From the NCBI RefSeq assembly GCF_046105845.1, contig NZ_CP151004.1: a stretch of 64,000 bases of DNA; one strand, 5' to 3'. The translations under genes and the position numbers were made by a program. The notes beneath the pieces are model-generated. The model saw only the letters and a list, made by a program, of their open reading frames with translations. It had not been told where the DNA came from and made no database searches. Below, one piece after another: positions 2,911 through 50,467 of this stretch. Positions within the stretch are counted from its first letter, which is position 1, and every line of letters starts with the position of its first letter. Origin of the DNA: Escherichia coli (lineage in GTDB: Bacteria > Pseudomonadota > Gammaproteobacteria > Enterobacterales > Enterobacteriaceae).

Positions 2911-3390
2911 ATGAAACGAATTGCGTTTGTGGGTACCGTCGGGGCAGGAAAAACAACGTTATTTAATGCGTTGCAGGGAGATTATACCCTCGCCAGAAAA
3001 ACGCAGGCCGTAGAATTTAATGATAAGGGCGATATTGATACGCCGGGTGAATATTTTAGCCATCCCCGCTGGTATCACGCCTTAATTACCACGCTACAGG
3101 ATGTGGACATGCTGATCTATGTCCATGGCGCAAATGACCCGGAAAGCCGATTGCCTGCCGGGTTGCTGGATATTGGCGTCAGCAAACGGCAAATCGCCAT
3201 CATCAGTAAAACGGACATGCCGGATGCTGACGTCGCCGCAACGCGAAAGTTATTGCTTGAGACGGGCTTCGAGGAGCCGATTTTCGAGCTAAACAGCCAC
3301 GACCCGCAAAGCGTGCAGCAACTGGTGGATTATCTGGCATCTCTCACCAAACAGGAGGAAGCAGGTGAAAAAACTCATCACAGCGAATGA
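2911..3390 (+). CDS. eutP: Ethanolamine utilisation protein EutP (P-loop NTPase)
   Basis: 159 aa, Walker A motif GTVGAGKTT near N-terminus; position between eutS and eutQ. Confidence 0.92.
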   Translation: MKRIAFVGTVGAGKTTLFNALQGDYTLARKTQAVEFNDKGDIDTPGEYFSHPRWYHALITTLQDVDMLIYVHGANDPESRLPAGLLDIGVSKRQIAIISKTDMPDADVAATRKLLLETGFEEPIFELNSHDPQSVQQLVDYLASLTKQEEAGEKTHHSE

Positions 3391-4866: not shown

Positions 4867-5879
4867 TTATTGAACGTTGTCGTGAACTGGCGTTGCGAGC
4901 GCCCGCCACAGTGGTTTTTCCGGATGCGTTAGATCAACGTGTGCTGAAAGCTGCGCAATATTTACATCAACAAGGTCTGGCAACGCCCATTCTGGTCGCC
5001 AATCCGTTTGAACTTCGTCAGTTTGCGCTCAGTCACGGCGTGGCGATGGACGGGCTACAGGTGATAGATCCACATGGCAACCTCGCAATGCGGGAAGAAT
5101 TTGCCCATCGCTGGCTGGCCCGCGCGGGCGAAAAAACGCCGCCGGATGCGCTGGAAAAACTCACCGAACCGCTTATGTTCGCCGCAGCAATGGTCAGCGC
5201 CGGTAAAGCGGATGTCTGTATCGCGGGCAACCTCTCTTCCACGGCGAATGTGCTGCGTGCCGGATTACGCATTATCGGCTTGCAGCCAGGCTGTAAAACG
5301 CTCTCCTCCATTTTCCTGATGCTGCCACAGTACAGTGGCCCCGCATTGGGCTTTGCCGATTGCAGCGTGGTGCCACAGCCGACGGCGGCGCAGTTGGCGG
5401 ATATCGCGCTTGCCAGCGCCGAAACCTGGCGCGCCATCACCGGAGAAGAGCCGCGCGTGGCGATGTTGTCGTTTTCCAGTAACGGCAGCGCCCGTCACCC
5501 CTGCGTTGCCAATGTCCAGCAGGCGACAGAAATCGTCCGTGAGCGCGCGCCGCAGTTGGTAGTCGATGGCGAGTTGCAGTTTGACGCCGCCTTCGTGCCG
5601 GAAGTGGCGGCGCAAAAAGCGCCTGCCAGCCCGCTACAAGGCAAGGCCAATGTGATGGTTTTTCCGTCGCTGGAAGCCGGAAATATTGGCTACAAAATCG
5701 CACAACGACTCGGCGGATATCGTGCCGTCGGGCCATTGATACAAGGACTTGCCGCGCCGATGCACGATCTCTCTCGTGGTTGTAGCGTGCAGGAAATTAT
5801 CGAGCTGGCGCTGGTGGCAGCTGTGCCGCGTCAGACAGAAGTAAACCGTGAAAGCAGTTTACAAACACTGGTTGAATGA
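4863..5879 (+). CDS. eutD: EutD phosphotransacetylase (Pta family)
   Basis: 338 aa Pta-like translation; ATGA overlap with eutT. Confidence 0.92.
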
Positions 5880-43405: not shown

Positions 43406-44332
43406 ATGAATTATTCTTTAAAACAATTAAAGGTTTTCGTCACAGTAGCGCAGGAGAAAAGTTTTAGTCGTGCAGGAGAGCGTATCGGCCTGAGCCAGTC
43501 GGCAGTGAGTCACAGTGTGAAGGAGCTGGAAAATCATACTGGTGTTCGCCTGCTGGACAGAACCACGCGTGAAGTGGTGCTTACAGATGCAGGGCAGCAG
43601 TTGGCTTTGCGTCTTGAGCGACTGCTGGATGAACTTAACAGCACGTTGCGCGATACCGGGCGTATGGGGCAACAACTGAGCGGAAAAGTTCGGGTCGCTG
43701 CCAGCCAGACCATTTCCGCGCATCTTATTCCGCAATGCATTGCTGAAAGCCATCGCCGCTATCCAGATATTCAGTTTGTCCTGCACGATCGTCCGCAGCA
43801 GTGGGTGATGGAAAGTATTCGCCAGGGAGATGTCGATTTTGGCATCGTCATCGATCCAGGCCCAGTGAGCGATCTGCAATGTGAAGCGATTCTTTCCGAG
43901 CCTTTCTTCTTGCTTTGCCATCGCGATAGCGCTTTGGCCGAGGAAGATTATGTACCCTGGCAGGCATTACAGGGAGCGAAATTGGTGTTGCAGGATTACG
44001 CGTCAGGCAGCCGACCGCTGATTGACGCAGCTCTGGCGCGCAACGGTATTCAGGCGAATATTGTGCAGGAGATTGGTCATCCGGCGACGCTGTTCCCGAT
44101 GGTAGCCGCAGGCATCGGCATCAGTATTCTTCCCGCACTGGCGCTACCATTGCCTGAAGGTAGCCCACTGGTGATAAAGCGCATTACACCGGTGGTAGAA
44201 CGCCAGTTGATGCTGGTGCGCAGGAAGAACCGTTCACTTTCCACCGCCGCACAAGCGTTATGGGACGTGGTACGAGACCAGGGCCATGCGCTAATGGCTG
44301 GGCGGGAAGGGGATCCGTTGTATCAGATATAG
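43406..44332 (+). CDS. yfeR: LysR-type transcriptional regulator YfeR
   Basis: 308 aa [42 protein letters not shown].. (N-terminal HTH); divergent from yfeH. Confidence 0.92.
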
Positions 44333-44664
44333 ATATCGATCTGAGTCGTTTTTTCAACAGGATTTGGAAGGGATGCATTCAGAGACAAACGCTGCTCTTT
44401 CTCCTGCGCTTTTTCTGCCTGCTGTCTTTGCAACTGCGCCAGTTGTGTTTCCAGTAGGGTGATTTGCTGCTGAATCAATTCGGCCTGTTTTTGCTTGTCT
44501 TCAGCACTGCCGCTAGTGTCTGCAATCTCTTTAATTTGTTGAGTGAGTTTGATGATTTGCTGACTTATCCGCGCAATTTGTGAAGCAACATCGCTACCTT
44601 CTGATGCCCTGTTACTACTCTGTGTTTGTATGGAAGGAATTGAAGTTGGAGAGATAGTGGCCAT
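44323..44664 (-). CDS. Hypothetical coiled-coil protein, FlxA-like (flagellar-regulon-type protein of unknown function)
   Basis: 113-aa ORF with GAGG SD 8 nt upstream of ATG; S/T-rich N-terminus then Q/L/K/E-rich predicted coiled coil ([57 protein letters not shown]), C-terminus ..QIDIYI; own sigma-28-like promoter; family assignment from memory, not searched. Confidence 0.6.
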
Positions 44665-44692
44665 TGTTCAGTCCTCGTCACTGTACGAGGTA

Positions 44693-44719
44693 ATATCGGC
44701 AGAAGAACAAGGAACTTGA
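44693..44719 (-). promoter_or_regulatory. Putative sigma-28 (FliA)-dependent promoter of the FlxA-like ORF
   Basis: Minus-strand read TCAAGTTC-N11-GCCGATAT vs FliA consensus TAAAGTTT-N11-GCCGATAA; 28 nt upstream of the ORF start. Confidence 0.5.
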
Positions 44720-44752
44720 GAAGAAAAATCAATCTTACAAACCGCATATAGC

Positions 44753-44779
44753 AAAAAAGCGCCTTTAGGGCGCCTTTTT
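44753..44779 (-). terminator. Rho-independent terminator of the valU-valX-valY-lysV tRNA operon
   Basis: A-tract, gcgcc..ggcgc hairpin, T-tract immediately 3' of lysV. Confidence 0.75.
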
Positions 44780-44783
44780 ACAT

Positions 44784-44859
44784 TGGTGGGTCGTGCAGGA
44801 TTCGAACCTGCGACCAATTGATTAAAAGTCAACTGCTCTACCAACTGAGCTAACGACCC
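44784..44859 (-). tRNA. lysV: tRNA-Lys (anticodon UUU)
   Basis: Reverse complement reads GGGTCGTTAGCTCAGTTGGTAGAGCAGTTGACTTTTAATCAATTGGTCGCAGGTTCGAATCCTGCACGACCCACCA; 76 nt with encoded CCA. Confidence 0.97.
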
Positions 44860-44863
44860 GAAG

Positions 44864-44939
44864 TGGTGGGTGATGACGGGATCGAACCGCCGACCCCCTC
44901 CTTGTAAGGGAGGTGCTCTCCCAGCTGAGCTAATCACCC
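44864..44939 (-). tRNA. valY: tRNA-Val (anticodon UAC)
   Basis: Reverse complement reads GGGTGATTAGCTCAGCTGGGAGAGCACCTCCCTTACAAGGAGGGGGTCGGCGGTTCGATCCCGTCATCACCCACCA; 4-nt spacer to lysV. Confidence 0.97.
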
Positions 44940-44985
44940 ACTTCGGTACTTCACATTTTTACAAGAAATTTAGCTGGTGAGAAAG

Positions 44986-45061
44986 TGGTGGGTGATGACG
45001 GGATCGAACCGCCGACCCCCTCCTTGTAAGGGAGGTGCTCTCCCAGCTGAGCTAATCACCC
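44986..45061 (-). tRNA. valX: tRNA-Val (anticodon UAC)
   Basis: Identical 76-nt tRNA-Val copy. Confidence 0.97.
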
Positions 45062-45105
45062 ACTTCTCAATTTCTTGCTACACGGCGGAGACTACATAAA
45101 GTAGT

Positions 45106-45181
45106 TGGTGGGTGATGACGGGATCGAACCGCCGACCCCCTCCTTGTAAGGGAGGTGCTCTCCCAGCTGAGCTAATCACCC
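45106..45181 (-). tRNA. valU: tRNA-Val (anticodon UAC)
   Basis: Identical 76-nt tRNA-Val copy; first gene of the tRNA operon. Confidence 0.97.
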
Positions 45182-45198
45182 CCGCTGTGTGGAGTCGC

Positions 45199-45226
45199 AT
45201 TATAGGGAGAGTTCAAAATGAGTCAA
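45199..45226 (-). promoter_or_regulatory. Sigma-70 promoter of the valU tRNA operon (stringent-type)
   Basis: Minus-strand read TTGACT-N16-TATAAT followed by GC-rich discriminator gcgactcc, about 18 nt upstream of valU. Confidence 0.7.
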
Positions 45227-45439
45227 CGCATTTTCTAAAGAAATTGTTCGTTCGTCGTAAATTTAAGCAAGATGATCGCAAAACAGACCGTGTTGCGCAA
45301 TTTGTCAACGAAAACAATAATGCGTAAGGTTGCAACCCGAACTACATTGAGGAATCAGGCGGGAGTGATAGAATATCGCCCACTCAATTTTTCCAGGATT
45401 TGCCGGTTGTCGGCATCTTTCTAAACGTAAGGCCATTTC

Positions 45440-46855
45440 ATGAAAATCAAAACTCGCTTCGCGCCAAGCCCAACAGGCTATCTGCACGTTGGCGGCGCGC
45501 GTACTGCTCTTTACTCCTGGCTTTTTGCACGTAACCACGGCGGTGAGTTCGTGCTGCGTATTGAAGACACCGATCTTGAGCGTTCCACGCCGGAAGCTAT
45601 CGAAGCCATTATGGATGGCATGAACTGGCTGAGCCTGGAGTGGGATGAAGGTCCGTACTACCAGACCAAACGTTTTGATCGCTACAACGCGGTGATCGAT
45701 CAGATGCTGGAAGAGGGCACAGCTTATAAATGCTATTGCTCTAAAGAGCGCCTGGAAGCGCTGCGCGAAGAGCAAATGGCGAAAGGTGAGAAACCGCGTT
45801 ATGACGGTCGCTGCCGCCACAGCCATGAGCATCATGCTGATGATGAACCGTGCGTTGTACGTTTTGCTAACCCGCAGGAAGGTTCTGTTGTTTTTGACGA
45901 TCAGATCCGTGGTCCGATCGAATTCAGCAACCAGGAGCTGGATGATCTGATTATCCGTCGTACCGATGGTTCTCCAACCTATAACTTCTGTGTGGTGGTT
46001 GACGACTGGGATATGGAAATCACCCACGTTATCCGTGGCGAAGACCATATCAACAACACGCCACGCCAGATCAACATTCTTAAAGCACTGAAAGCGCCGG
46101 TACCGGTTTACGCGCACGTTTCTATGATCAACGGCGATGACGGCAAAAAACTGTCCAAACGTCACGGGGCGGTCAGCGTAATGCAGTATCGTGATGACGG
46201 TTATCTGCCAGAAGCACTGCTGAACTATCTGGTGCGTCTGGGCTGGTCCCACGGCGATCAGGAAATCTTCACTCGTGAAGAGATGATCAAATACTTCACC
46301 CTGAATGCCGTCAGCAAATCTGCCAGTGCGTTCAACACCGACAAGCTGCTGTGGCTGAACCATCACTACATTAACGCGCTACCGCCGGAGTATGTTGCTA
46401 CTCACTTACAGTGGCACATTGAGCAGGAAAATATCGATACCCGTAACGGCCCGCAGCTGGCTGATCTGGTGAAACTGCTGGGCGAACGCTGCAAGACGCT
46501 GAAAGAGATGGCACAGAGCTGCCGTTATTTCTACGAAGATTTTGCTGAGTTCGATGCCGACGCCGCGAAAAAACATCTGCGTCCGGTAGCGCGTCAGCCG
46601 CTGGAAGTGGTTCGTGACAAACTGGCCGCGATTACTGACTGGACCGCTGAAAACGTTCATCACGCTATTCAGGCGACGGCGGATGAGCTGGAAGTGGGTA
46701 TGGGTAAAGTTGGTATGCCGCTGCGTGTCGCCGTAACTGGTGCGGGGCAGTCTCCGGCGCTGGATGTTACCGTTCACGCAATCGGTAAGACCCGCAGTAT
46801 CGAGCGTATCAACAAAGCGCTGGCTTTTATTGCTGAACGCGAAAATCAGCAGTAA
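45440..46855 (+). CDS. gltX: Glutamate--tRNA ligase GltX
   Basis: 471 aa [30 protein letters not shown].. with class I HVGG and KLSKR motifs. Confidence 0.97.
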
Positions 46856-46872
46856 TTAGCGCATAAAAGATA

Positions 46873-46904
46873 AACGGCAGGAGAGATACCCCTGCCGTTT
46901 TTTA
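46873..46904. terminator. Bidirectional rho-independent terminator between gltX (+) and yfeD (-)
   Basis: 9-bp stem aacggcagg/cctgccgtt followed by tttttt; A-rich on the 5' side. Confidence 0.8.
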
Positions 46905-46905
46905 T

Positions 46906-47298
46906 TTATTCTGATTCATCTATGTCGAGACGAGCAAGGAAATTACGAATTCCTTCGCGTGACAAAAATTGCGCAACTTTTTCCTGCTCACTGTGAGTCA
47001 TGTTGTCTATTGCGCTGATGATTTGCCGATAAGCAGGAGTGCGAATCCCCGGTGCGTATTCGGCAAGGGGTTCTTCGGCTTCCAGAAGCATCGGCGTGTT
47101 ATGGAAGGCTGGCGTGTTCTGAATAAACTCGCAAACTTGCGTATCGACCAGAATAAGTCTGGCACGACCGCCTTTCACGCCAGGAAACTTTTCCGTTTTC
47201 CAGCCTTTTTCTCTGATCCAACGGTTAACAGTTTGTTTAGCCACACCGAGGCATTCAGCCAGTTCTTCGGTGGTCATTTTATTGCGTAATCTTTTCAT
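46906..47298 (-). CDS. yfeD: Small putative DNA-binding protein YfeD (HTH)
   Basis: 130 aa MKRLRNKMTTEELAECLGVAKQTVNRWIREKGW..; paralogous to adjacent yfeC. Confidence 0.88.
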   Translation of the reverse strand: MKRLRNKMTTEELAECLGVAKQTVNRWIREKGWKTEKFPGVKGGRARLILVDTQVCEFIQNTPAFHNTPMLLEAEEPLAEYAPGIRTPAYRQIISAIDNMTHSEQEKVAQFLSREGIRNFLARLDIDESE

Positions 47299-47299
47299 A

Positions 47300-47644
47300 T
47301 TATTTGCTATCGCGAATCCCTAAGCGTTGTAATAATCCGATAATCCCTTCCCGCAGAAGCAAGGATGTAAACTGTTTTTGTTCAACTGGCGTCATCTCTT
47401 TCGCCAGTGTCACCAGCAACACTTCAAGCGGCGCATCACCAGACAGGGCAGGCGCTTCTCCCTGACCTTCTGGACGTTCAGCATTGCGAATATATTCACG
47501 AACCTGTTCATTGACGTGAACCAGTCGGGCTTTGCCACCCTGGACGCCAGGTTTTGGTGACGTTGTCCAGCCTTCCTTGCGTACCCATTTATTAATGGTC
47601 TGGCGGCTATAGCCGGTCAGTCTGGCAAGTTCATCTGGCGTCAT
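47300..47644 (-). CDS. yfeC: Small putative DNA-binding protein YfeC (HTH)
   Basis: 114 aa MTPDELARLTGYSRQTINKWVRKEGW..; strong SD aaggagagg before this ATG; alternative upstream start at 47659 would add 5 aa. Confidence 0.85.
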   Translation of the reverse strand: MTPDELARLTGYSRQTINKWVRKEGWTTSPKPGVQGGKARLVHVNEQVREYIRNAERPEGQGEAPALSGDAPLEVLLVTLAKEMTPVEQKQFTSLLLREGIIGLLQRLGIRDSK

Positions 47645-47818
47645 CCTCTCCTTGAACATAACAATTCCCTGAATGTATGTGGGTCTATTAGTCGTTCATT
47701 TTATAACACCACTTTACAGGAAACCGTGACATGAATAACTACTGAATGCGAGCGGTTTTCCAAAATTGTTCATTTGCCTGATTTTTCAGCGATTGAAACT
47801 ACACGTTGCAATTTGCCG

Positions 47819-47847
47819 TTGACACATTCGGGCGGAATTCATATGAT
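47819..47847 (+). promoter_or_regulatory. Sigma-70 promoter of the alaX-alaW tRNA operon (stringent-type)
   Basis: TTGACA-N17-TATGAT followed by GC-rich discriminator gccgcccg, about 30 nt upstream of alaX. Confidence 0.7.
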
Positions 47848-47879
47848 GCCGCCCGTCAACTCGACAAGCTTTACGTGAC

Positions 47880-47955
<76 letters not shown>

Positions 47956-47994
47956 AATTTTGCACCCAGCAAATTTGGTACGTAAACGCATCGT

Positions 47995-48070
<76 letters not shown>

Positions 48071-48079
48071 AATTTCCAA

Positions 48080-48105
48080 CCCTCGCTGCAAAGCGGGGGT
48101 TTTTT
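48080..48105 (+). terminator. Rho-independent terminator after alaW
   Basis: ccctcgct-gcaa-agcggggg hairpin followed by tttttt. Confidence 0.8.
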
Positions 48106-48277
48106 GTCTCTGCTTTTTGCCGCTTTTGTAATACAGTCTACGTCCGGGTTAGCGCCGCCTGGTGAAAGCATCATTGGATGAAAAATCGGCAACAGGCTGG
48201 CCCCTGTTTGCTTCGCGATGCGAATAAACTTATTATTTGTGTGCCTGAAAACCCCGATCAGTGAGAGTAGTGTACTC

Positions 48278-50467
48278 ATGTTTGTGGAGCATAACCTGAT
48301 AAAAAATATCAAGATATTCACACTAGCGTTTACGCTCACCGTGGTACTTATTCAGCTATCCCGTTTTATTTCGCCACTTGCCATTATCCATTCCAGTTAT
48401 ATCTTTCTGGCGTGGATGCCACTGTGCGTAATGCTGTCAATCTTGTTTATCTTTGGCTGGCGCGGTGTCGTTCCCGTTTTATGCGGGATGTTTTGCACCA
48501 ATCTGTGGAACTTTCATCTCTCTTTTTTACAGACCGCGGTCATGCTCGGCAGCCAGACGTTTGTGGTGTTGTGTGCCTGCGCAATATTACGCTGGCAGCT
48601 GGGGACGCGTTGGCGTTATGGATTGACCAGCCGATATGTCTGGCAACGTCTTTTCTGGCTTGGTTTGGTGACGCCGATCGGCATCAAATGCAGCATGTAT
48701 CTTGTGGGGAGCTTTTTTGATTTCCCGCTAAAGATATCCACCTTTTTCGGCGATGCGGATGCCATTTTCACAGTCGTTGATTTACTAAGCCTTTTCACCG
48801 CTGTGCTGATTTACAACATGCTTTTCTACTATCTCACTCGCATGATTGTAAGTCCCCACTTTGCGCAGATATTGTGGTGCAGGGATATCGCTCCGTCGTT
48901 GGGCAAAGAGAAACGCGCATTTACCTTAAGCTGGCTGGCAGCGTTAAGCGTGCTGCTACTTCTGCTGTGCACACCGTATGAAAATGACTTTATTGCCGGT
49001 TACCTGGTGCCCGTTTTCTTCATTATCTTTACCCTCGGGGTCGGTAAGCTCCGCTATCCGTTTTTAAATCTCACCTGGGCTGTTTCAACGCTTTGCCTTC
49101 TGAATTACAACCAGAACTTTTTGCAAGGGGTGGAAACCGAATATTCGCTGGCATTTATTCTCGCGGTGCTGATTTCCTTTAGCGTTTGCCTGCTCTATAT
49201 GGTGCGCATTTATCATCGCAGTGAATGGCTTAATCGCCGCTGGCATTTGCAGGCGCTGACCGATCCGTTAACGCTCCTACCCAACTTTCGTGCGTTAGAA
49301 CAAGCGCCGGAGCAAGAGGCGGGCAAGAGTTTTTGCTGCCTGCGCATTGATAATCTTGAGTTTATGAGTCGTCATTACGGCTTAATGATGCGCGTTCACT
49401 GTATCCGATCAATTTACCGTACGCTGCTGCCGTTGATGCAGGAAAACGAAAAGTTGTATCAATTGCCGGGTAGTGAACTGCTGTTAGTGCTGAGCGGGCC
49501 GGAAACGGAAGGGCGACTCCAGCATATGGTTAACATCCTGAATAGTCGGCAAATTCACTGGAACAATACCGGGCTGGATATGGGCTATGGTGCTGCCTGG
49601 GGGCGTTTTGATGGAAATCAGGAAACCCTGCAACCCTTGTTGGGGCAGTTAAGCTGGCTGGCGGAGCAATCCTGCGCACATCATCATGTGCTGGCGCTGG
49701 ATAGCAGAGAGGAGATGGTTTCCGGGCAGACCACTAAACAGGTGCTATTGCTGAATACCATTCGTACGGCGTTAGATCAGGGTGATTTGCTGCTCTACGC
49801 CCAGCCAATTCGCAACAAAGAGGGTGAAGGTTATGATGAGATCCTCGCGCGACTGAAATATGACGGCGGCATTATGACCCCGGATAAGTTTCTGCCCCTT
49901 ATTGCTCAGTTTAACCTTAGCGCGCGTTTTGATTTGCAAGTGCTGGAATCCTTGTTGAAGTGGCTGGCAACACACCCTTGCGACAAAAAAGGTCCGCGCT
50001 TTTCAGTCAATTTAATGCCGCTCACGCTGCTGCAAAAGAATATTGCCGGGCGGATTATTCGTCTGTTTAAGCGTTATCACATCTCCCCGCAGGCGGTCAT
50101 TCTTGAGATCACCGAGGAGCAGGCGTTTTCTAACGCAGAAAGCAGCATGTACAACATCGAGCAACTGCATAAGTTTGGCTTCCGGATTGCGATTGATGAC
50201 TTTGGCACCGGCTATGCCAACTACGAACGGTTAAAGCGTTTGCAGGCTGATATCATCAAAATTGATGGTGTCTTTGTGAAAGATATCGTCACGAATACGC
50301 TGGATGCGATGATTGTGAGATCAATTACCGATCTGGCGAAAGCGAAGTCATTGAGTGTGGTCGCGGAGTTTGTCGAGACGCAACAGCAGCAGGCGCTATT
50401 GCATAAGCTCGGGGTGCAATATCTGCAAGGGTATTTGATTGGTCGCCCGCAGCCATTAGCTGATTAA
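48278..50467 (+). CDS. pdeA: Cyclic-di-GMP phosphodiesterase PdeA (YfeA): N-terminal membrane sensor domain, degenerate GGDEF, EAL domain
   Basis: 729 aa MFVEHNLIKNIKIFTLAFTL..; C-terminal EAL signatures (..IAIDDFGTGYANYERL..); ORF-track extension (48218) rejected. Confidence 0.92.
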   Translation: MFVEHNLIKNIKIFTLAFTLTVVLIQLSRFISPLAIIHSSYIFLAWMPLCVMLSILFIFGWRGVVPVLCGMFCTNLWNFHLSFLQTAVMLGSQTFVVLCACAILRWQLGTRWRYGLTSRYVWQRLFWLGLVTPIGIKCSMYLVGSFFDFPLKISTFFGDADAIFTVVDLLSLFTAVLIYNMLFYYLTRMIVSPHFAQILWCRDIAPSLGKEKRAFTLSWLAALSVLLLLLCTPYENDFIAGYLVPVFFIIFTLGVGKLRYPFLNLTWAVSTLCLLNYNQNFLQGVETEYSLAFILAVLISFSVCLLYMVRIYHRSEWLNRRWHLQALTDPLTLLPNFRALEQAPEQEAGKSFCCLRIDNLEFMSRHYGLMMRVHCIRSIYRTLLPLMQENEKLYQLPGSELLLVLSGPETEGRLQHMVNILNSRQIHWNNTGLDMGYGAAWGRFDGNQETLQPLLGQLSWLAEQSCAHHHVLALDSREEMVSGQTTKQVLLLNTIRTALDQGDLLLYAQPIRNKEGEGYDEILARLKYDGGIMTPDKFLPLIAQFNLSARFDLQVLESLLKWLATHPCDKKGPRFSVNLMPLTLLQKNIAGRIIRLFKRYHISPQAVILEITEEQAFSNAESSMYNIEQLHKFGFRIAIDDFGTGYANYERLKRLQADIIKIDGVFVKDIVTNTLDAMIVRSITDLAKAKSLSVVAEFVETQQQQALLHKLGVQYLQGYLIGRPQPLAD

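Follow-up and report, generated by a model that had tools for sequence, protein, structure and literature searches.

Near-consensus sigma-70 promoters of the valU and alaW tRNA operons on either side of gltX in Escherichia coli, and the likeness of the valU promoter to rrnB P1

A sub-optimal 16-bp spacer between the -35 and -10 hexamers is a feature of the rrn P1 promoters, and rrnB P1 of Escherichia coli MG1655 reads TTGTCA-N16-TATAAT-GCGCCACC-A. Three hallmarks have been described for rRNA promoters: the region from -60 to -40 holds an A+T-rich UP element, the discriminator (-8 to -1) is rich in G+C, and transcription begins nine bases after the -10 hexamer (Shin et al., 2021; PMC7822876). 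Among tRNA promoters, those of the valU and alaW operons have been the subject of dedicated studies, one of them on the two promoters together (Brun et al., 1990, J Mol Biol 214:845, going by its title) and another on FIS and what its title calls the 'non-overlapping' promoters of valU and gltX (Champagne and Lapointe, 1998, Mol Microbiol 27:1141). Both promoters are already known: they were mapped in 1990, their response to FIS was studied in 1998, and the valU start was re-mapped in 2014. In K-12, RNA circularisation placed the start of the valU operon 9 nt upstream of mature valU, with the EcoCyc start said in the same report to lie 2 nt further downstream, and the full-length polycistronic transcript was given there as approximately 438 nt, with a Rho-independent terminator that is removed by RNase P (PMC4176162). 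The current names of the transcription units are valUXY-lysV and alaWX.

The stretch of E. coli DNA analysed here (the window, 64 kb in all, from contig NZ_CP151004.1) carries both operons in the annotated order ligA-ypeB-yfeH-yfeR-(FlxA-like)-(lysV, valY, valX, valU)-gltX-yfeD-yfeC-(two tRNA-Ala)-pdeA. In the K-12 annotation valU-valX-valY-lysV are b2401-b2404 and gltX is b2400, while the promoter-proximal tRNA-Ala gene is alaW (b2397) and the distal one alaX (b2396). The tRNA genes and terminators of the two operons are as follows.

44784-45181, minus strand: valU, valX and valY (tRNA-Val, anticodon UAC) and lysV (tRNA-Lys, UUU); ARAGORN, Rfam and K-12 annotation
44753-44773, minus strand: Rho-independent terminator of the valU operon, a hairpin (44773-44759) followed by a T-run (44758-44753)
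47880-48070, plus strand: alaW and alaX, two identical tRNA-Ala genes (GGC); ARAGORN, K-12 annotation and Rfam
48078-48107, plus strand: Rho-independent terminator of the alaWX operon, a 10-pair stem followed by TTTTGTCTCT

An Rfam scan of 44200-48400 at the gathering threshold returned six tRNAs and no further RNA element. By megablast the gltX region is present in 5,425 of 5,426 complete E. coli genomes, and the valU promoter module likewise in 5425 of the 5426. Locus, gene order, transcription start and transcript length are those of the K-12 valU and alaW promoters, and the promoter DNA is without differences: alignment to MG1655 shows both promoter cores to be identical, with the identity running down to the tRNA in each case, from the UP element onward at valU and from -100 onward at alaW, and the valU-gltX intergenic region differs by 3 SNPs only, all in its gltX-proximal half. 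As both promoter regions are identical to those of MG1655, experiments performed in K-12 carry over directly.

The left flank of lysV does differ from K-12, which has xapR there (followed by xapB, xapA and yfeN) where the window has a gene of the FlxA-like family (about 44325-44666, minus strand), next to yfeR. Of 5,426 E. coli genomes, 1,307 have the FlxA-like/lysV junction in complete form, and this side of the tRNA operon therefore varies from strain to strain. The closest record, NZ_CP082357.1 (strain VCSW7), is about 156 bp longer across a 3.5-kb query and carries an annotated 'RtT sRNA' beside the FlxA-like gene and lysV, in the region that matches approximately 44250-44800 of the window.

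Each of the two operons is preceded by a near-consensus promoter. For valU the original prediction of TTGACT-N16-TATAAT with a GC-rich discriminator is exact, the site being TTGACT-N16-TATAAT-GCGACTCC at 45226-45191 on the minus strand, with 6 of the 8 discriminator bases G or C. The second predicted promoter, assigned to alaX, is likewise exact as a site (TTGACA-N17-TATGAT-GCCGCCCG, 47819-47855, plus strand) and carries the wrong gene name, the promoter-proximal gene being alaW. In a consensus scan each of the two matches 11 of the 12 hexamer positions, its spacer (16 bp for valU, 17 bp for alaW) falls in the 16-18 bp range of sigma-70 promoters, and a rescan of the whole 64-kb window on both strands yielded no other site of at least 11/12. 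Dinucleotide shuffles contain a mean of 0.56 such sites and at least two of them in 12% of cases, so that the number of sites is not significant by itself, and consensus matches are in themselves no evidence of function. These considerations are what could be said for regarding the hexamers as chance matches, with the operons transcribed from elsewhere. The likelihood of that is nevertheless negligible: the mapped valU start is the position that this promoter predicts, the elements are invariant across approximately 70 species, and upstream of neither operon did the scan find a second promoter-like site in the right orientation. Each site precedes the leading gene of a tRNA operon by at most 40 nt, on the correct strand, a placement with a roughly estimated chance of 6e-4 per random site. 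The chance reading is already refuted for valU, and both sites are real operon promoters in the expected places.

The elements of the valU promoter, read from upstream to downstream on the minus strand, are given below.

45231-45247, minus strand: UP element ACAATTTCTTTAGAAAA (consensus scan; conserved)
45221-45226, minus strand: -35 hexamer TTGACT (scan; invariant in 75 of 75)
45205-45220, minus strand: 16-nt spacer CATTTTGAACTCTCCC (scan; 16 nt in 75 of 75)
45199-45204, minus strand: -10 hexamer TATAAT (scan; invariant in 75 of 75)
45191-45198, minus strand: 8-nt discriminator GCGACTCC (invariant in 75 of 75)
45190, minus strand: transcription start of the operon, an A, 9 nt downstream of the -10 hexamer (K-12 mapping, PMC4176162)
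45182-45189, minus strand: rest of the 9-nt leader, which reads ACACAGCGG when the start base is counted in and is removed by RNase P (sequence and PMC4176162)

The published start corresponds to A45190 of the window, 9 nt after the -10 hexamer, in sequence that is identical in K-12; it thus falls where the promoter places it, not elsewhere. A45190 is followed by CACAGCGG and then by the mature 5' end of tRNA-Val at 45181, as called by ARAGORN. Counted from A45190 to the last base of the T-run (44753), the transcript is exactly 438 nt long, in agreement with the published length. The UP element was sought with the core consensus AAAWWTWTTTTNNAAAA, which reportedly derives from Estrem et al. 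in 1998. With at most 2 mismatches this consensus is matched once in the window, both strands included, at 45247-45231 on the minus strand, ending 4 nt upstream of the valU -35 hexamer. Approximately 1.4 matches are expected by chance anywhere in the window, and a match in this one register is therefore very unlikely to be accidental.

Conservation was followed across representative genomes in one scan anchored on GltX, and therefore unbiased with respect to the promoters, which gave 80 Enterobacteriaceae loci from approximately 30 genera. The tRNA-Val/Lys operon is divergent from gltX in all 70 loci with enough upstream sequence, and the downstream, co-oriented tRNA-Ala pair is present in 68 of 72. 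All 75 valU sequences have TTGACT, a 16-nt spacer, TATAAT, GCGACTCC and a start A, and 71 have the 9-nt leader. The alaW sequences uniformly have TTGACA, 17 nt and TAT(G/T)AT (70 of 70), with the GCCGCCCG discriminator in 66. Measured against a neutral yardstick of 212 four-fold degenerate gltX sites, whose mean identity to the window is 0.58, the constraint is evident: columns conserved at 97% or above make up 92% of the valU core and 62% of the alaW core, as compared with 4% of the four-fold degenerate sites. Few non-coding segments of the locus are under constraint as strong as that on the valU promoter. Gene conversion among paralogous copies was considered as a cause of its invariance and rejected, since the module is single-copy, with no second copy in E. 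coli genomes.

The pattern of constraint differs between the spacers of the two promoters. The valU spacer is nearly frozen across genera, 45214 being its sole variable position, and hexamer recognition alone does not explain this extra constraint on 45205-45220. The alaW spacer combines an upstream half that is free to vary (about 47826-47833) with a conserved GGAATTCA downstream. Each promoter stands one step short of full consensus in every species examined (approximately 70), and the fourth base of the alaW -10 hexamer toggles between G and T and is never A, though A would make 12/12 (TATTAT in 45 sequences, TATGAT in 25, TATAAT in 0). Selection may actively keep the promoters sub-optimal in order to tune their kinetics, or the valU spacer may hold an unrecognised element for RNA polymerase or another factor; we advance this pair of explanations only tentatively and regard it as rather doubtful. 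What is new here is so only mildly, namely the one-step distance from consensus in all species and the frozen valU spacer beside an alaW spacer of which half drifts. The sequence elements, the valU start, the operon transcript and the deep conservation are established here or in the cited literature.

The tandem tRNA-Val(UAC) genes of the valU operon range from 2 to 5 across loci, with 3 Val and 1 Lys in 50 of 56 full-flank loci, 5 tRNA-Val genes in Intestinirhabdus alba, 4 in Kosakonia sp. and 2 in several species including E. albertii; many assemblies break inside the tRNA-Val repeat. In Escherichia sp. E1V33 (4944-5019 of its locus sequence) and Citrobacter sp. NCU1 (3090-3165 of its locus sequence) the promoter-proximal tRNA-Ala has the anticodon UGC. 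Its 6-7 differences from alaW are concentrated in the anticodon and T arms, and the second copy is identical to alaW. Such a pattern suggests gene conversion or replacement by a tRNA-Ala of the UGC type more than a change of one base in the anticodon.

The alaW promoter has the following elements.

47819-47824, plus strand: -35 hexamer TTGACA (scan; invariant in 70 of 70)
47825-47841, plus strand: 17-nt spacer (scan; 17 nt in 70 of 70; downstream GGAATTCA conserved)
47842-47847, plus strand: -10 hexamer TATGAT (scan; G or T at the fourth base across species)
47848-47855, plus strand: discriminator GCCGCCCG, 8 of 8 bases G or C (GCCGCCCG in 66 of 70)

The first tRNA-Ala begins at 47880, and the alaW start probably lies at 47854-47856, as predicted from the sequence, giving a leader of about 25 nt. 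The promoter is without a UP element, there being no match to the consensus and only 55% A+T in the 22 nt upstream of the -35 hexamer. Like valU, alaW is also part of a divergent pair: the yfeC start of Kim et al. (2012) corresponds to 47704 on the minus strand, leaving approximately 151 bp to the predicted start of alaW. Within 47644-47855 there are conserved blocks at about 47722-47741 and 47776-47793.

The valU promoter lies back-to-back with gltX, whose ATG is at 45440, as the original prediction had read from the sequence and as the annotation agrees. The table of Kim et al. (2012), which contains ORF-associated transcription starts only and covers gltX and yfeC, gives two gltX starts (Table S1; PMC3415461). 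Transferred through the MG1655 alignment, one of these is A45357 and the other belongs to the main gltX promoter, which has an extended -10 element and a weak -35.

45347-45382, plus strand: main gltX promoter, TTGAGG-N16-TGaTAGAAT, with its start at A45382 (scan; Kim 2012 start; conserved module)

The 258-bp spacer between the operon and gltX resolves into four zones. The valU module (45182-45268, comprising leader, core, UP element and a block from -60 to -78) has an identity of 0.82-1.0; approximately 70 bp follow (45269-45341) at 0.46-0.70, which is the neutral rate (0.58); the gltX promoter module (45342-45381) has 0.75-0.85; and a conserved 5'-UTR hairpin and Shine-Dalgarno region occupies 45400-45440. 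The hairpin of the gltX 5' UTR (TGCCGGTTGTCGGCA, 45401-45415, then TCTTTCT) stands just upstream of the conserved ribosome-binding region at 45422-45439. A small conserved island, TTGTCAACGAAAA, is found at about 45300-45312 within the otherwise neutral 45269-45341.

The original prediction went further and regarded the tRNA operon and the synthetase gene as sharing one divergent control region, a claim which is too strong. In its fullest form it would make valU and gltX one bidirectional control unit, in which a shared element, for example one bound by FIS, reciprocally couples transcription of the tRNAs and the synthetase. Several observations are in keeping with such a unit. The valU start is separated from the two gltX starts by only 167 bp (45190 to 45357) and 192 bp (45190 to 45382), the divergent arrangement is found in 70 of 70 Enterobacteriaceae loci, FIS influences both promoters according to the title of Champagne and Lapointe (1998), and the intergenic region is listed both by FabR ChIP-chip in Salmonella and by PdhR gSELEX in E. 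coli. Conserved synteny alone is however no demonstration of co-regulation, the same title calls the two promoters 'non-overlapping', and the conservation profile shows two separate modules and, between them, approximately 70 bp that change at the neutral rate. This neutral stretch speaks for promoters that are adjacent and not one shared element, and we consider a single control unit unlikely, if worth keeping in view. Judged from the sequence, the valU and gltX promoters are adjacent, their arrangement is ancient, and there is no sign of a shared element between them.

Any influence of FIS would be exerted from candidate sites upstream of the two tRNA promoters.

45250-45268, minus strand: conserved block upstream of valU, about -60 to -78, with the candidate FIS site GCTTAAATTTACGAC (45268-45254) centred at -71
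47776-47790, plus strand: candidate FIS site GCCTGATTTTTCAGC upstream of alaW, centred at about -72, with key positions conserved

Within the valU block, 45252-45261 has a mean identity of 0.98 across 72 species, as against 0.58 at neutral sites. Promoters of the rrn P1 class have FIS sites upstream, site I being centred near -71. The block is a candidate FIS site by the analogy of its position with rrnB P1 and by the title of the 1998 study, and on the same title and positional analogy a coupling of valU and gltX through FIS at this valU-proximal block is possible. Against the degenerate FIS consensus, a comparison which has no statistical power, the valU candidate has 2 mismatches and the alaW candidate 1. 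Calling FIS sites by this consensus was tried and rejected, as its 108 matches are fewer than the 137 +/- 12 in shuffled sequence.

The resemblance of valU to rrnB P1 is close. Both have a 16-bp spacer, TATAAT and an A start 9 nt from the -10 hexamer; both contain the 14-mer CTCCCTATAATGCG around the -10 hexamer, the last 5 nt of the spacers being identical; both have an 8-nt G+C-rich discriminator that starts with GCG (GCGCCACC and GCGACTCC, respectively); and the UP element of rrnB P1 matches the AAAWWTWTTTTNNAAAA pattern in the same register as that of valU. The valU promoter shows all three of the rRNA promoter hallmarks of PMC7822876, and the 16-bp spacer in addition. The original prediction of a stable-RNA promoter architecture for the two operons is borne out, and for valU it was if anything an understatement, given the 16-bp spacer, the 14-mer of rrnB P1, the transcription start and the UP element. 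The alaW promoter has the discriminator and not the UP element or the 16-bp spacer; because it is without a UP element and its spacer is 17 bp, it resembles rrn P1 less closely than valU does.

A mechanism can be proposed from these features. At valU the UP element, contacted by alpha-CTD, and the near-consensus hexamers would recruit RNA polymerase strongly, and the 16-bp spacer, the 8-nt G+C-rich discriminator with its C at the second position after the -10 hexamer and a start 9 nt from that hexamer would make the open complex short-lived. Such instability would in turn confer sensitivity to the initiating ATP, to ppGpp/DksA and to supercoiling, so that valU output would track all three, and FIS probably activates the promoter from about -71. 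Initiation at A45190 yields the 438-nt polycistronic precursor ending at 44753, which is processed by RNase P. At alaW a perfect -35 hexamer, a 17-bp spacer, a 5/6 -10 hexamer and an all-G+C discriminator are found together, and the all-G+C discriminator probably brings the same regulation, without recruitment through a UP element. Open-complex instability, control by ppGpp/DksA and growth rate, activation by FIS and the alaW start we infer from the sequence and from what is established for this promoter class. It is highly probable that the two sites are the sigma-70 promoters of the valUXY-lysV and alaWX operons, valU being of the rrn P1 class with the regulation of that class.

Stringent and growth-rate control have been reported for the class of tRNA promoters with G+C-rich discriminators (PMC5137449). 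The same article describes pArgX as activated in vitro by DksA alone, without ppGpp, and because regulation thus differs among tRNA promoters the behaviour of one is not simply transferable to valU and alaW. By analogy ppGpp control is quite likely for valU and likely, by a somewhat smaller measure, for alaW; tRNA promoters not being uniform, as pArgX illustrates, it is put here as likely and not as demonstrated. The non-canonical response of pArgX to DksA (PMC5137449) would also sit well with promoters that are strong but constitutive, their G+C-rich discriminators reflecting supercoiling sensitivity or an optimisation of promoter escape, as would the reported link between discriminator G+C content and supercoiling sensitivity (PMC8422995) and the study by Figueroa-Bossi et al. 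(1998), cited in PMC5137449, of a tRNA promoter whose sensitivity to supercoiling reportedly parallels its stringent response. Sensitivity to supercoiling and to ppGpp are, however, usually coupled through the same open-complex instability and are therefore not alternatives; moreover, all the sequence features to which PMC7822876 attributes DksA/ppGpp sensitivity are the same in valU as in rrnB P1, and the stringent response inhibits stable-RNA promoters as a class (PMC5137449). Purely constitutive promoters are accordingly improbable, and growth-rate and ppGpp control of the rrn P1 type is the reading that we prefer.

As a finding, the identification of these promoters is correct but ordinary, and its value is that of confirmation and of annotation, since the RefSeq records have no feature annotated at the promoter positions. 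Among known tRNA promoters, those of tyrT, leuV, argX and thrU-tufB are of the same class, with near-consensus hexamers and a G+C-rich discriminator. The paralogous Val/Lys operon lysT-valT-lysW-valZ-lysYZQ encodes the same tRNA species as the valU operon and has, according to PMC4176162, an identical terminator. The lysT promoter was considered as a close paralogue of the valU promoter and rejected, the same scan giving no match of at least 9/12. From rrnB P1 the valU promoter differs in its -35 hexamer (TTGACT, as against TTGTCA), in being without a tandem P2 promoter, and in its product, which is a 438-nt tRNA precursor whose leader measures 9 nt, where rrnB P1 drives an rRNA operon with antitermination signals. 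The valU promoter is a very close analogue of rrnB P1 in a tRNA operon, and it is on this account a convenient natural test case for the co-selection of spacer, discriminator and start-site spacing.
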